Source: Candidatus Babeliales bacterium (GTDB lineage: Bacteria > Babelota > Babeliae > Babelales > JANWKD01). From it: a stretch of 64,000 bases of DNA. Below are positions 33,639 through 39,806 of this stretch, one piece after another. Location of the stretch: assembly GCA_963762115.1 (NCBI GenBank), contig CAVXJH010000005.1, positions 1-64,000 on the forward strand, in the 5' to 3' direction. A program made the position numbers and the translations under genes. Below the pieces are notes generated by a model. The model was not told the DNA's origin, did no database searches, and saw only the letters and a list, made by a program, of their open reading frames with translations. Each line of letters starts with the position of its first letter. Position 1 is the stretch's first letter.

Positions 33639-35114
33639 ATGAAAAAATTTTTAATAATAATACTTCTTCTTTATACAAGTAGAATACTATTAGCTACAGA
33701 GCTTGCAAAAGAATTGGTTACATTAGAATCAACGCTTAATGCACTGAATAAAGCTTTATCTGTTTCAAAAAAAACACCTAGCATTGTTCCTGGATCTAAA
33801 GTTGTTCCTGAATTTGTAACGTTAGTAAGAAATTCAGAGCATTTTGATAAAAAAGCAGTTAAAAAAGGTAAAAAATCACTCTTTCCTACCCGCGAAAATC
33901 GAATTGCAGTAATTGCTGCAAATGATACCACTAAACAAGCTGAAATTGTTGAGCAAGCAAGAACTACCTATCCTTTGTTGCACCCAAAAACTTTACTACT
34001 TATTCAGGGTTTTTTAGAAAACAAAAAAAAATATGGAAGTAATCTGGAAAAAGCTTTATATAAAACTATGAATGAAAAATCTTTTATTAATCGATTACTT
34101 ATCAAACGTCCATTAATGTTTATGACAGAATCAGATTCGTATCTTTTAAGGGATGGTTATACGCAAGGTGCTGGTGGATTTGAAGCAATTGGAACTAATC
34201 AAGAACAGCCACCATTAATTCTTGCTGACTATCTTTCTTATGATGAAATGCAAATTGCTACACTATTAGGCGTATCGGTGCCAACCTATTTTATTAACGA
34301 TGGCAATCGAAATAATAAAAGCATAAAAGGGGCGCCAGGAACTTATGAAGAAAAAGGTATTTATGTTGCATTGGTTGGGGCTCGTTTTGAAAGACCTGGA
34401 CTCATGGAATGGCAACATATGATTATAACCCCGGAACAAAACACTACACAACATGGTTATGGCATTGGTAATACATCTAACCCAGCTATTTCTTTATGGT
34501 CAAAAGTGTATGGTCTTCCTTTTCCAACGTATCAGGAAGCAGCACAAAATACTTCGGGAAGATATATTCCTTTTGATGGTGGTCAAAAATATTTTGATAG
34601 TTCCGTATATAAAGAACGTTTAAAGTTAGTTCTTGAGCCATTTTTACTTGATGCTCATAAACGAGCTATGCTCCAAGGAAAAAGATCCTATGTTCAAGTT
34701 GTTGGAATTGGTCTTGGCGTGTGGAGAAAAATTGATGAACAGTGGCAGTTGATGCTTGATACTTATGCTGAAATAATAAAAAAACATGATTTATCGCATA
34801 TTGCAGATATAAATTTCATTTGGTTTCCTGAATATGCAAATAGCTGCGGAGGCGTGAAAAATGGTGGCATATTCAAAACAAATACTAATGCAATTACTAT
34901 ACATTTCTCTACAAGGAATCCTACAGAAATGTTAAAAGGAAAAGATGCTGGTAAATTATTAGTAGCTTGCTATGCATGGGATGGAAATTCTTATCCGGGT
35001 AATGAATATTGGATTGGTTCGCTTACTGCTTCCGGGGACCCCGCTGCTGCATGCTGCTCGACCATTGCCGAATTGCAAAATCCAGAAATAAATAAGTTAT
35101 TTTTAGTAAAATAA
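33639..35114 (+). CDS. DUF4804 / MavL-like macrodomain-related protein with signal peptide
   Basis: KRPLMF, DYLSYDEM, VGARFE, GIGLGVW, YAWDGNSYPGNEYW.GSL.ASGDPAAACCS. Confidence 0.75.
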   Translation: MKKFLIIILLLYTSRILLATELAKELVTLESTLNALNKALSVSKKTPSIVPGSKVVPEFVTLVRNSEHFDKKAVKKGKKSLFPTRENRIAVIAANDTTKQAEIVEQARTTYPLLHPKTLLLIQGFLENKKKYGSNLEKALYKTMNEKSFINRLLIKRPLMFMTESDSYLLRDGYTQGAGGFEAIGTNQEQPPLILADYLSYDEMQIATLLGVSVPTYFINDGNRNNKSIKGAPGTYEEKGIYVALVGARFERPGLMEWQHMIITPEQNTTQHGYGIGNTSNPAISLWSKVYGLPFPTYQEAAQNTSGRYIPFDGGQKYFDSSVYKERLKLVLEPFLLDAHKRAMLQGKRSYVQVVGIGLGVWRKIDEQWQLMLDTYAEIIKKHDLSHIADINFIWFPEYANSCGGVKNGGIFKTNTNAITIHFSTRNPTEMLKGKDAGKLLVACYAWDGNSYPGNEYWIGSLTASGDPAAACCSTIAELQNPEINKLFLVK

Positions 35115-35134: not shown

Positions 35135-36208
35135 TTAATTGTTGATGCCAAAAAAATTGTGGCATCGTTCTAATAATCGATCAAATTCATGCTGATTGGC
35201 ATCTTCAGAATCTTGTCCTCGAATAAAGGTAATACCCAAAATACCTTCTTCCTTTGGTGCATAATAAATAAGCTCATCACGCGCTTTGCCTTGGGCATTC
35301 ACCATGACCACTTTTACATTAATCATATACTGCACATTTTCTAAAGACGGTTGATTTTTAAGACTAATAAGATGACCCTGCACTGGAATAATACGTTTAT
35401 CATCAGTTAATTGCTTTGCACCCATACCAGCACAATTAAATAGTATAAAATCATTACTATCATCAAAGGAGTGTACTTCTTTTTGCACAATAACAATGCC
35501 AAGTTCACGAATATTTCGATGCAATTCTTGCATAATTTTTGCCGTATTAATAAAAATTGTTTTATACGCCATAACCTCATGCGACTTGCCATTACCAAAA
35601 TCAATCATAACTCTTTCAGGTGTTTCCATAAGCCCCTGTTCAATATAAGGATTAAAACCGGGGTCAATATCTAACCCAAAATAAGCCGGCAGTATTTTAG
35701 GCCCTTCTTGAATAAACGGATGTTCTCCCCGAGAAATACTGCAATATGTTTGATATGATTCCATGCCCATGGCATTAAATAAAAAACGTTCTTGCGCAGA
35801 AGAACATTTACGTGAACGCGGGAAAAAAAACCCCGCTGCTTTTGTTGAAGGAATATTTCCCGTCTCCTTAGCAACAATTGAAACAGTATAGCCCTTACGC
35901 TTAAGCATAATAGCCGTTAAGAGGCCATAACATCCTGCTCCAATGACACAGATCGACTTGTTTTTTAATTCATTATCATGTGCCAACATCTGCTCAAATT
36001 GGCGTATTGATTCATGAACACACCCAAAAAGAAAAGTCCACCCTGCACCACCATGCCCATAATTATGGAAAACAAGCTTTTCTCCACGTATTTGAGAATA
36101 TACCTGAAAAATCCGCTCACGATGAGCTCGAATACAGGTTATTCTTTCTTTGATATGTTCAGAAGAAATTGAAGGTGGCGTAAGGTGTATGATTTTTTGT
36201 TTATTCAA
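35135..36208 (-). CDS. FAD-dependent D-amino-acid-oxidase-like protein
   Basis: HNYGHGGAGW, VIGAGCYGL, NCAGMGAK, PVQGHL. Confidence 0.85.
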   Translation of the reverse strand: MNKQKIIHLTPPSISSEHIKERITCIRAHRERIFQVYSQIRGEKLVFHNYGHGGAGWTFLFGCVHESIRQFEQMLAHDNELKNKSICVIGAGCYGLLTAIMLKRKGYTVSIVAKETGNIPSTKAAGFFFPRSRKCSSAQERFLFNAMGMESYQTYCSISRGEHPFIQEGPKILPAYFGLDIDPGFNPYIEQGLMETPERVMIDFGNGKSHEVMAYKTIFINTAKIMQELHRNIRELGIVIVQKEVHSFDDSNDFILFNCAGMGAKQLTDDKRIIPVQGHLISLKNQPSLENVQYMINVKVVMVNAQGKARDELIYYAPKEEGILGITFIRGQDSEDANQHEFDRLLERCHNFFGINN

Positions 36209-36429
36209 GTGATACTAATCGAGTTAAAGGGAAAATATATAATAAAAGCTAGAAGTATACGGTGAGTATACACAAAAACAGGTATTTTTGATAATTTCTA
36301 TATGAAACAAATCAACCATTAGACAAAACTAAAAGTTACTATAAACTGATTCTTAGGTGAGGTTATATCTTTTGATATAATTTCTTGTTTTATATCTATT
36401 CATATTCATTAAAAAAATGAGGTTTTTTT

Positions 36430-36813
36430 ATGCATATTTTAGCAATCGCTATCGCTACTATTTCTTCTTTTGTTCTTGGGGCTCTTTGGTATTGCCCTTT
36501 ATTTGGTAAAATCTGGCAAAAAGCTGTTGGCATTTCAGATGAACAGATAAAAGCTTTAGGCAATGTGCCTTATGCAATCGCTCTTGCTTGCTCCTTCCTT
36601 GGCGCAATGGGCTTTAATTATTTAGTAATGAATTCAGTTTCATTAGAAAATAATATATTTGTAGGCTTGATGGTTGGCATCTTGGTGGCAACATCAATGT
36701 GCATTAACTATCAATTCTCTGGCCGCGATAATAAGGGTTTCTTGATTGATGCAGGATTCCATATTGCTCGCTTTGTTCTTTGCGCATTAGTTTTCTGGTT
36801 TATTAAAAACTAA
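36430..36813 (+). CDS. DUF1761 membrane protein
   Basis: LGALWY..LFGK.W; four TM segments; FLIDAGF. Confidence 0.8.
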   Translation: MHILAIAIATISSFVLGALWYCPLFGKIWQKAVGISDEQIKALGNVPYAIALACSFLGAMGFNYLVMNSVSLENNIFVGLMVGILVATSMCINYQFSGRDNKGFLIDAGFHIARFVLCALVFWFIKN

Positions 36814-36823
36814 AAAATTAACC

Positions 36824-36878
36824 AAAAAGAGACGGCTCTTCAGGACTCATTGAGTTCCGAAGGGCCTTCTCTTTTTTT
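36824..36878. terminator. Intrinsic terminator
   Basis: AAAAAGAGA..GGCTCTTC...GAAGGGCC..TCTCTTTTTT. Confidence 0.6.
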
Positions 36879-37249
36879 AAGCCAATTCACTAAATAAATA
36901 CATAAACTTAATCTCATTCTTAGATGGCCTCATGTCGGCCAGACATGAATATATTGCATGCCCAATATATTCAATACAAGGGCACCAACGTTCCGTTGGA
37001 TCTTTTTTCCCGCGCGAATATGCACCACTCCATTGTTGATGCCTTCAGCATCAAAATTCCAGGTGCACGTCGCACTACCAGACTAACTTATTTATAAATT
37101 TTTCTTACTTCAAGACGATAATCAGAACAACATTCAAAAAAAAATGTCATTCCTAACCTACGAACTTCGAAGAATCAAAAATAGCAGAGGCCTGTCCGCC
37201 ATAGTGATTGTGTTAAAAGTCAAATATTTTTTAATAAAGCTAAACAATA

Positions 37250-38191
37250 TTAAGCTTTACATAATTCACCTTTTTTTAGTAAAGAATTAGCAATCACAAT
37301 AAGTTTATGCATAATAGCTACGATAGCTATTTTAAAAGGTTTTTTAGAAGTTATTAAACGATCGTAAAGTTCCTTTAATGGGAGATGATATTTAATAGTT
37401 GTTAATGCACACATATAAAGCATATTTCTTGGAATAGTTCTTCCACCTCTGATGAATTTTTTACCCTTATAACTTCCACTTTCATTCTCATAAGGACAAA
37501 CACCAATGAGTGCTGATACTTTTTTATTACTTATTTGACCAAGTTCAGGAACGAATGATAATAATGTTGCAGCTGAAGTTTTGCCTATTCCTGGAATTGA
37601 CTCCAAAATTTTTGATTTTGTATTTAATTTTTCATCTTGCTGAATTAAATCTTGTATCTTTAAATCAATTGATTTGATTTCGCACTCTAAGATTTTGATA
37701 AATTTCTTTATACTTGATGCATATAATGCATGAGATGGATGTTTAGATCTTGTTTTTTCGGCAACTAAAAATTTTACCAAGTCATTTTTACGATTGACCA
37801 AAGCTTGTAATTTTTCTTGATTTTCGCTTTTGTTCATTATCTCATAATCAGGAGAATTTTTAGAAGCAAATTCAGCAATTTTTCGAGCATCAATTTTATC
37901 CGTTTTGCTTTTGCAGCCACTAGCAACAATATAGCCTTTTATTCTTCTTGGATCGATGATCCAAAGATAATAACAATTTTTTTTTAATATTCGAGCAAGT
38001 AATTTTTCATACCCACCAGTTGCTTCGCATGCAATTTGTTCGATATCATATTTAACTAATTCTTTAATGATCTCCGTTATTCCAACTTCTGAGTTTGATA
38101 CTTTTAAAGATTTTCCTATTGGATGGATATAAACATCTAAAGTGTTTTTTGAAATATCGACACCTATAAATACTTTTGATATATTTTTCAT
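37250..38191 (-). CDS. IS110 DEDD recombinase/transposase
   Basis: GVDISK, CEATGGY, KTDKIDA, SIPGIG, ESG. Confidence 0.95.
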   Translation of the reverse strand: MKNISKVFIGVDISKNTLDVYIHPIGKSLKVSNSEVGITEIIKELVKYDIEQIACEATGGYEKLLARILKKNCYYLWIIDPRRIKGYIVASGCKSKTDKIDARKIAEFASKNSPDYEIMNKSENQEKLQALVNRKNDLVKFLVAEKTRSKHPSHALYASSIKKFIKILECEIKSIDLKIQDLIQQDEKLNTKSKILESIPGIGKTSAATLLSFVPELGQISNKKVSALIGVCPYENESGSYKGKKFIRGGRTIPRNMLYMCALTTIKYHLPLKELYDRLITSKKPFKIAIVAIMHKLIVIANSLLKKGELCKA

Positions 38192-38194
38192 AAA

Positions 38195-38340
38195 TACCTC
38201 TGGCTTGTAGACATGCGAGATCGTATGTACTTGATACGTCTCTAGTGATTGTTCGAGGTCATTTTTGTATAAGCTGATAGTCTCAAACTATGACACGGTC
38301 CTTTGAGACCAAGCTTGACACGAGATCTATCAGCTTCTCA
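38195..38340 (-). ncRNA. Predicted IS110 bridge RNA (target- and donor-binding loops)
   Basis: Stem AGCTGATAG/CTATCAGCT enclosing guides TGTCAAGCT and GTCATAG; second loop with ACAATCACT and TACAAG; exact ends uncertain. Confidence 0.75.
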
Positions 38341-38558
38341 AACAATTAATTTCAAAACAACTGATCATAAATTAACAAAATTTAGCTTTAAAATCATTTT
38401 GATTTAACATACAAGCTTGCCAAGCCTGAAGGCGTGGATAAGCGAAGGGAAATGCTTGGCCTGCATAAGGCCGTTTTATAACAAACAAAATATCTTGTTG
38501 AAAAATACAAAATATATAATAATAAAAAATAAATAGTATTTATAACAAGTGAGAATCT

Positions 38559-38903
38559 ATGCAAATTGTTAAAGAAAAAATTACCCTTGAAGAACTAAAA
38601 AAAATGTCAGAGGAAATGTTTGGCAATTTGGTTAAAGCTGTTGTTGATATTGAACAAAAAATTATGGTTGTTGATGCTGACATGCATGCTGATGAAGAAG
38701 AGCTTTTATTAGAATTGGGATCAGAACAAAAAAACCTTTGGGGAATCAACATTCATCCTGATGAAGTTGATACTGAAAACTGGATAGAATTTGACTCAAT
38801 GATCAACATTCGTCCACGCTGTGACAACAAAAGCCGCTATGTACACAATCCAAAAATTAGAGAACAAATAATAAAAATTGTTAATCAATTGGTTAAAAAA
38901 TGA
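38559..38903 (+). CDS. DUF5674-like protein
   Basis: VKAVVDI, MHADEE, GS.QKNLWGINI, IEFDSMINIRP. Confidence 0.75.
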   Translation: MQIVKEKITLEELKKMSEEMFGNLVKAVVDIEQKIMVVDADMHADEEELLLELGSEQKNLWGINIHPDEVDTENWIEFDSMINIRPRCDNKSRYVHNPKIREQIIKIVNQLVKK

Positions 38904-39238
38904 AAATTCATCATACATCACTTACCATTGAACGCTGGTCAAGATTTTCACTCCTTGAACAATTAGCTAATGTTGGTAGTGATGTTGAACGCACAATCCA
39001 ATGGAAAAAAAGAGGCAATTTAGAATATAGTCAAAATGCATTTGAACGCGTATTAGAACTTTTAGACTTTACCATTGAAGACCCAAAAAATAAAAAAAGG
39101 CTCAGAGAAATCTTGCGTGTTCGCGAAGCATTGATAGATTATTTTATGTATAGCAATGAATATTCTTCCACCGACAAATCTTGGCAAGACTATTTTTATC
39201 AATTTAATTATGCTGCAGCAATGCAAAAAGGAAAATAA
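38900..39238 (+). CDS. Conserved hypothetical helical protein coupled to the upstream gene
   Basis: EQLANVGSDVER, ELLDFTIEDP, EILRVRE; ATGA overlap. Confidence 0.7.
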   Translation: MKIHHTSLTIERWSRFSLLEQLANVGSDVERTIQWKKRGNLEYSQNAFERVLELLDFTIEDPKNKKRLREILRVREALIDYFMYSNEYSSTDKSWQDYFYQFNYAAAMQKGK

Positions 39239-39242
39239 GAAA

Positions 39243-39806
39243 ATGAATATAATGAAGTTTTATGCAACGCTATTATTTTTAATAGTTATGCCAGCTTTTG
39301 GCATGGAAAAACAAAAATCTTTACCTGAATTTATAAGCATTGATTGGGGAGACTCACGATCAGACCCCCTGTATGAATCACCGGGACAATTAATTGAACA
39401 TCACATTCAACACCCTACATTTATACGCAATCAATTAGAAAAATATCCCCCGCAACAACTTTTAAAATTCCGATACTTTCACCACAATAATCTCTTTCAT
39501 ATTCTTGTTAAAACATTAACACAACAAAAAGATTCTCCTGAAAATTTTGGTCAGCTCATTGGCGAATATAAACCCGTATTTGAATATCTTGTAAAAACAG
39601 GCCTGGATATTAACGAAGTAAATGATGATCATAGAACCCCTTTTATTCTCCTGGTTAAAGCTCAAGATAAAAGATTAAGGCCATTAGAAAATTTCCTAAC
39701 TGATGAACTTGGAGCACATTTAACCTATGCTTCTATCGCTCCTGAATTAAGGTTTTTTTGGAATATTATAACCTGCAATTCTTGTAGAAAGCCAAAATAC
39801 TCTTGA
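39243..39806 (+). CDS. Secreted protein with degenerate ankyrin-like segment
   Basis: Signal peptide followed by ME; GLDINEVNDDHRTPF. Confidence 0.6.
   Translation: MNIMKFYATLLFLIVMPAFGMEKQKSLPEFISIDWGDSRSDPLYESPGQLIEHHIQHPTFIRNQLEKYPPQQLLKFRYFHHNNLFHILVKTLTQQKDSPENFGQLIGEYKPVFEYLVKTGLDINEVNDDHRTPFILLVKAQDKRLRPLENFLTDELGAHLTYASIAPELRFFWNIITCNSCRKPKYS

Follow-up and report, generated by a model that had tools for sequence, protein, structure and literature searches.

How an insertion sequence whose guides can be read in its own DNA chooses its target, and how strictly each guide counts, is the question raised by an IS110-group element of a Candidatus Babeliales bacterium. The bridge recombinase family has thousands of predicted members. 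The element lies in a 64,000-nucleotide stretch of contig CAVXJH010000005.1 (assembly GCA_963762115.1), here called the window. A sequence-only reading of the window had proposed an IS110 element with legible bridge-RNA guides, and this observation was confirmed. The element exists in five copies, has a predicted bridge RNA in its left end and is likely mobilised at a CT core by RNA-guided recombination of the IS621 type; its 7-nt right guide likely chooses the repeats. The probability of this reading is estimated at roughly nine in ten.

The features of the element are collected in Table 1. It measures 1,211 bp counting one CT core and 1,213 bp counting both. The left end takes up 222 nt and the right end 45 nt, and between them lies a gene for 313 aa. 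The IS110 group is distinguished from the IS1111 group by a long left end with the RNA and a short right end (PMC11208160), and with 222 and 45 nt the element belongs to the former. The genome (1.53 Mb, 7 contigs) contains five full copies. Over 1,209 compared nucleotides three are identical and two have one substitution each (I25V and C261Y). Their near-identity points to recent spread, and the element was apparently recently active. The ends ACAATCA-CT and CT-TGTA, first proposed from the letters alone, were confirmed at the right and left cores, and the four other copies share them. The bounds proposed with them, 37189-38470, contain the element and also include host repeat; the element proper is the shorter interval in Table 1.

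CT was found at both ends of all five copies and only once at the empty sister sites of the fifth. The fifth copy interrupts a gene with an integrase core (rve), which we take to be IS481-like, and three uninterrupted copies of that gene, 97–99.9% identical, lack exactly 1,211 bp. These empty sites set both ends of the element exactly, free of any motif. Insertion leaves a CT at each end and otherwise neither duplicates nor removes DNA. The left end was placed by blastn in the five full copies only, and no partial left ends that could be solo bridge RNAs were found in the genome. The circle junction made by joined ends was absent from the assembly, and no backward joint was found in the contigs of four runs, though contigs cannot exclude it.

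The recombinase matches the Pfam families DEDD_Tnp_IS110 (PF01548) and Transposase_20 (PF02371) at 65.7 and 56.4 bits, both over the cut-offs. Among solved structures IS621 (8wt6) and ISCro4 (9t56) were its sole relatives, at E about 1e-32. D12, E56, D98 and D101 of the DEDD RuvC-like site and S238 align with D11, E60, D102, D105 and S241 of IS621, and the wedge residues Y259, M260 and L263 align with Y264, M265 and M268 (IS621 numbering from PMC11208158). All IS621 catalytic residues are kept in the alignment and the frame has no stops, in agreement with the earlier description of the protein as apparently intact. It had also been called compact. The length of 313 aa is correct and the compactness modest, as IS110 recombinases span about 300–460 aa (PMC11208160) and the solved IS621 chain has 328 aa (2 of them extra residues). 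We infer from its sequence that the recombinase is active and programmable.

The predicted bridge RNA was examined by folding. The 224-nt left end was more stable than 200/200 shuffles (z = -3.28; 0/200 equally good). A 5' stem-loop is predicted, followed by a target-binding loop with an outer stem, two guides and an inner hairpin, and then by a donor-binding loop, which was found by local folding and is not formed in the whole-region MFE fold. All four guide strings were located on the minus strand where they had been placed. The rebuilt target TGGCAAG-CT-ATGGC pairs as had been described, with one mismatch to the left target guide (position 3) and one rU:dG wobble to the right target guide (position 13). 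When the 222-nt left end was shuffled with dinucleotides preserved, all four guide matches together occurred in 0/3,000 sequences; singly, the matches occurred in 34, 391, 7 and 211 per 3,000. The handshake bases and the split of the right donor guide had been overlooked. As judged by eye in the alignment of relatives described below, the right donor guide likely extends by AT at 38214-38213 across a bulge. The right donor guide of IS621 is discontinuous (PMC11208160). A one-base core and a single-strand reading of the donor were not seen; the element has CT at each of its cores, and its two donor guides face opposite strands. Rfam gave nothing meaningful over 36000-39500, the one sub-threshold match being to a miRNA (E 0.43).

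Joining the ends does create TTGACT-17-TATGTT, as had been noted. As a promoter the sequence matches at only 9/12 positions and is weak alone; this level is reached 8 times in the 1.4-kb region against 7.4 expected from shuffles. Because such matches are common locally, the predicted junction promoter counts by position only.

Table 1. Features of the element and of the host repeat around it (positions in the window).
Feature	Position	Strand	Basis or remark
IS110-group insertion sequence	37203..38415	-	five copies with identical ends; empty sister sites of the fifth copy
Host palindromic repeat, left part	38416..38445	-	left target TGGCAAG in 3' arm of predicted hairpin
Left CT core	38414..38415	-	TGTA follows
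-10-like hexamer TATGTT, predicted junction promoter	38406..38411	-	17 nt from -35-like box once ends are joined; predicted function
Predicted 5' stem-loop, bridge RNA	38347..38396	-	single-sequence folds, unaligned across relatives
Target-binding loop (predicted)	38271..38336	-	fold -27.6 kcal/mol
Left target guide TGTCAAGCT, 9 nt	38312..38320	-	1 mismatch to repeat target
Right target guide GTCATAG, 7 nt	38288..38294	-	1 wobble to repeat target
Target-loop handshake bases	38286..38287	-	first (U) can pair donor position 7 (A)
Donor-binding loop (predicted)	38196..38259	-	local fold; outer and inner stems in alignment consensus
Left donor guide ACAATCACT	38244..38252	-	9/9 identity to right end plus core
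Right donor guide	38204..38214	-	TACAAG 38209-38204, probably with AT across bulge
Donor-loop handshake bases	38202..38203	-	first (C) can pair target position 7 (G)
Bridge recombinase gene, 313 aa	37250..38191	-	stop-free ORF; Pfam matches and IS621/ISCro4 similarity
-35-like hexamer TTGACT, predicted junction promoter	37218..37223	-	predicted function
Right CT core	37203..37204	-	ACAATCA precedes
Host palindromic repeat, right part	37190..37202	-	right target ATGGC

Related elements were used to examine whether guides and targets change together. Among 261 small genomes of the phylum, 19 had a recombinase match at E below 1e-40. Alignment A2 was built from the loop regions of 21 distinct elements (protein identity 40–100%). 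It omits L084 and L086, for which no ends were found, L088, whose right end lies beyond its contig, the distant L006-L008 and 56 further loci. Guides were delimited by scaffold columns and the core dinucleotide, independently of the target, except that the left guide of L018 was placed by hand. Each covariation test had 19 elements, as L089 was dropped for its unequal cores, L017 has no left flank and L016 no right end. For multi-copy elements the commonest target was used. The ends of relatives were located via promoter-like motifs, so promoter conservation would be circular and was not counted.

The RNAalifold consensus of the 21 elements has 22 pairs, 17 with compensatory change, which frame two large loops. 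The outer stem of the target loop shows compensatory changes; its inner hairpin, seen in the single fold, was missed by RNAalifold owing to register shifts. Outside the core, left guides and targets formed 98/133 Watson-Crick pairs, whereas 100,000 permutations averaged 43 and never exceeded 73; right guides and targets formed 71/95, the permutations averaging 33 and reaching at most 57 (p<1e-5, overstated since the elements are kin). Pairing was strongest beside the core, with left position 7 paired in 19/19 elements and position 1 in 7/19. Among 20 elements no two left guides are alike and the right guides come in 18 forms, and donor guides track donor changes in L018, L077, L080 and L082. 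Left guides read the bottom strand and right guides the top, overlapping at the core, and they covary with both target and donor. The proposal that changed guides change target choice has its natural counterpart in these elements, where altered guides go together with altered targets and donors.

Handshake guides, for which covariation at position 7 has been reported (PMC11208158), were also found. The base after the right donor guide can pair target position 7 in 18/19 elements (permutation mean 8.6, maximum 17), and the pairs include C:G, G:C and U:A. The base after the right target guide can pair donor position 7 in 17/19 (mean 12.5; 406/100,000). The second base pairs position 6 in only 1/19 (donor loop) and 2/19 (target loop), so that of positions 6-7 of the partner DNA only position 7 is generally paired. 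Target position 7 is G at all five insertion sites of the element.

A poor fit of one arm was seen on the left (2-3/7 Watson-Crick pairs) in L019, L076, L078 and L079 and on the right (2-3/5) in L081, L083, L004, L005, L076 and L082. Nine relatives show such misfits, for which lax recognition, drift, rearranged flanks or bulges may account. Several further features of the relatives were observed. L002, L010, L012, L014, L003 and L077-L080 target different palindromic repeat families. One genome (G001) contains two distinct elements with the same donor and different target guides. The distant relatives L085 and L093 have a TT core and a right target guide with an AA end, while L089 has CT on the left and TT on the right, possibly a one-base core. 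In L076, 18 nt of the left end are duplicated in tandem, and the right flank of L081 repeats sequence upstream of its own left end, suggesting element-linked rearrangements.

The repeat copies of the genome itself record how the right guide would choose. One palindromic repeat hosts four of the five element copies, all at an identical 14-nt target; the proposed REP-like target is borne out by these four, while the fifth copy lies elsewhere. With the elements removed in silico, 15 repeat copies, recognised by their having the repeat's flanks, were counted by eye among 30 rows with at most 2 mismatches to the 13-nt arm. The ATGGC right target was filled in 4/4 repeat copies and the other variants (ACGGC, ACGAA, TCGGC, TCGTC, TCGAC, TCCAC and ACAGC) in 0/11 (Fisher p = 0.0007). 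Among the 12 copies whose 13-nt left arm is identical, p was 0.002. All 11 empty copies have C at position 11, opposite an A of the guide. The empty ATGGC form was found in 4 of 260 other genomes, none of them among the 18 with a close recombinase. Since it stands empty in genomes without a close recombinase, the variant predates insertion and is not its product. Conversion of C into T by insertion was rejected, as the empty T form exists in these 4 genomes and the C form at 18 sites in 11 others. Target exhaustion is not general, with many empty matching targets kept in genomes G001 and G164. In the present genome no empty target lies within 1 mismatch of the 14-mer spelled by the guides, and the sole non-self site with 2 mismatches is empty.

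At the fifth site, GCCTTTG-CT-ATGAT, 5/5 right-arm positions pair with the right guide (one by wobble), and position 7 is G. The left guide pairs at 1/7 by Watson-Crick plus one wobble. Only 121 of 148,314 CT sites in the genome combine full right-arm pairing with G at position 7, so the fifth insertion was guided. A donor-like half-match was considered and rejected (left 2/7, right 1/4). The element and its flanks are 99.7–100% like their sisters, and post-insertion drift is therefore no explanation for the mismatch. A predicted 9-bp hairpin ends one base 5' of the core. Comparable hairpins, defined as -6 kcal/mol or better and covering at least 6/7 left-target bases, occur at 9 of the 121 sites; all five insertions are among those 9 and none among the other 112, although two of these hairpin-free sites pair 6/7 left positions. 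Run X1 showed both empty and filled junctions of the fifth site, but was not counted, as its bridging contig has <31 letters per side and the run is possibly not independent. Four copies of the IS481-like element were found (C5:85127-86290, C3:347708-348864, C3:197663-198823 and C6:253.5-255.9 kb, the last at L011). Its three intact copies bear the same site, and the IS110 element could hitch-hike on it.

We wondered whether the hairpin might replace left-guide pairing. Pairing on the left would then be a helper, and recognition would depend mainly on a hairpin in the DNA just 5' of the core together with the right guide and the handshake at position 7. Besides the fifth site, this idea draws on ISPpu10, in which a lax left guide and a strict right guide are helped by a target stem-loop (10.64898/2026.03.19.712850). 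In the same system, however, 10/11 stem inversions that break left pairing abolished recombination, and the stem-loop aids but cannot substitute for pairing (10.64898/2026.03.19.712850). Common descent explains why the four repeat copies have the same hairpin, and this leaves a single event as independent evidence. Hairpins occur at 5/117 sites that do not belong to the repeat family, which gives about 4% by chance for a feature chosen after the fact. Moreover, no insertion is present at the three identical sister sites or at one other site with a hairpin. A stem-loop over 6/7 left-target bases is present at 5/5 of the element's own sites and at 0/27 sites of relatives (0-5 bases paired), where a general hairpin rule is unsupported; dG is near 0 at the targets of L002, L010 and L092. 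The strong covariation of left guides and targets also persists. These results make substitution by the hairpin unlikely, though it deserves to be kept in view. Under bridge-RNA guidance with both arms read, the left guide would be lax and the right guide strict, and the fifth copy would be a rare half-match insertion.

The filled repeats might instead reflect descent, one insertion having been multiplied together with its repeat through host recombination or repeat spread. The left flank is common to all four copies for about 30 nt and the right flank for 8-11 nt. Against this, the repeats around the four copies are not identical to one another and the sequences outside them are unrelated, and the fifth copy is cleanly inserted in non-homologous DNA and also has the T demanded by the guide. 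We regard descent as very improbable. That the protein reads repeat structure, with guide matches as inherited remnants or chance, is scarcely credible: REP-like targets are palindromic and some relatives fit theirs poorly on one arm, but the four matches did not recur together in shuffles and guides track differing targets across 19 elements.

Layout, residues, covariation and core all agree with the IS621 bridge-RNA layout that had been assigned to the element, and RNA-guided recombination can be pictured as follows. The element would be excised as a circle in which CT links its right and left ends, and the promoter at the circle junction would drive the bridge RNA and then the recombinase gene. 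From the sequence and the covariation, the donor loop is predicted to read ACAATCA-CT-TGTA and the target loop TGGCAAG-CT-ATGGC. By analogy with IS621 structures, a recombinase tetramer would cut via S238 with D12/E56/D98/D101, and after strand exchange one handshake base per loop would pair position 7 of the partner DNA. The product, as seen at the insertion sites, has CT at both ends, with nothing else duplicated or lost.

Comparison with IS621 and ISCro4/IS622 (PMC11208160, PMC11208158, 10.1101/2025.05.14.653916; PDB 8wt6, 9t56) shows many shared features. These include a recombinase with DEDD and serine residues, the same catalytic and wedge positions, a CT core, a long left and short right end, and the order of 5' stem-loop, target loop and donor loop. 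The 9-nt left guides, the position-7 handshake and a repeat target with one tolerated non-match are also shared, and a junction promoter is predicted here from a motif with 17-nt spacing. IS621-type elements are described with this layout, REP targeting and 0-2 natural mismatches (PMC11208160). In contrast, the protein is distant from both (E 1e-32; 313 aa), donor and target sequences differ, only the first handshake base pairs, and the host lies outside the Gammaproteobacteria. The natural right target guide has 7 nt here and 4 nt in IS621; longer natural right guides occur in some orthologues, and 7-nt right guides improve specificity (PMC11208160).

ISPpu10 of Pseudomonas putida likewise has a REP target, a left arm in a 5' stem-loop, lax left and strict right recognition and a CT core. 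The evidence here, unlike that for ISPpu10, comes from natural insertion sites. One site here is almost without left pairing, a condition under which ISPpu10 failed in a reporter assay, and the hairpin is not general among relatives of the element. In IS621, as in our reading of the fifth copy here, one paired arm plus the CT core is enough for insertion. A right-target-only substrate worked in vitro, and right-target-only sites were left out of the in vivo classes, the right guide being 4 nt (10.64898/2026.08.31.748434). The 7-nt right guide here instead makes one natural right-only insertion readable. In the literature no paper on IS110 in Dependentiae/Babeliae was found, although supplements of preprints might list the clade; the accessible part of the PMC11208160 supplements contained no taxon name or matching element among the matches listed.

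Other features of the neighbourhood were recorded. A second dispersed repeat of about 150-200 bp with several hairpins lies at 36930-37105 on the minus strand and folds at -55.7 kcal/mol over 176 nt, a value without a shuffle control. By blastn it has 20 further pieces in the genome (74-96% identity), some adjoining other IS110 copies; lookalike sequence was seen by eye near L014 and L016, and it belongs to no Rfam family. A structured RNA and a REP/MITE-like composite are both conceivable. On a contig of run X3 covering 38110-38444, the palindromic repeat targeted by the element contains a closely similar element in which both target guides are changed (38291, 38319). The right-guide change would allow pairing with the C-form repeat, a lead from a single contig of depth 4 with an unreadable right flank. 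Just upstream of the element, at 38559-39238 on the plus strand, are overlapping genes for a DUF5674 protein (114 aa) and a 112-aa protein without a Pfam match. A plus-strand gene at 33639-35114 encodes 491 aa with a MavL-like ADP-ribosylhydrolase/macrodomain match (PF16062, E 9e-121), and its product resembles a host-directed effector family.

The element adds a distant, short bridge recombinase with a natural 7-nt right guide from a little-studied phylum. In an earlier ortholog screen junctions were obtained for 18/72 orthologs in human cells (10.1101/2025.05.14.653916). The clade of about 20 relatives, with guides retuned to different palindromic repeats, is a ready set for such a screen. 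The genome also serves as a natural specificity record, in which one right-target base divides filled from empty repeat copies. If the hairpin did stand in for the left guide, the copy in the IS481-like gene would have been permitted by DNA structure with the right arm alone paired. Natural insertions of this kind were unscorable in vivo in the published IS621 data and disallowed in ISPpu10 reporter assays. Off-target prediction for bridge editors would then have to score right-arm matches beside hairpins, beyond full 14-nt matches.
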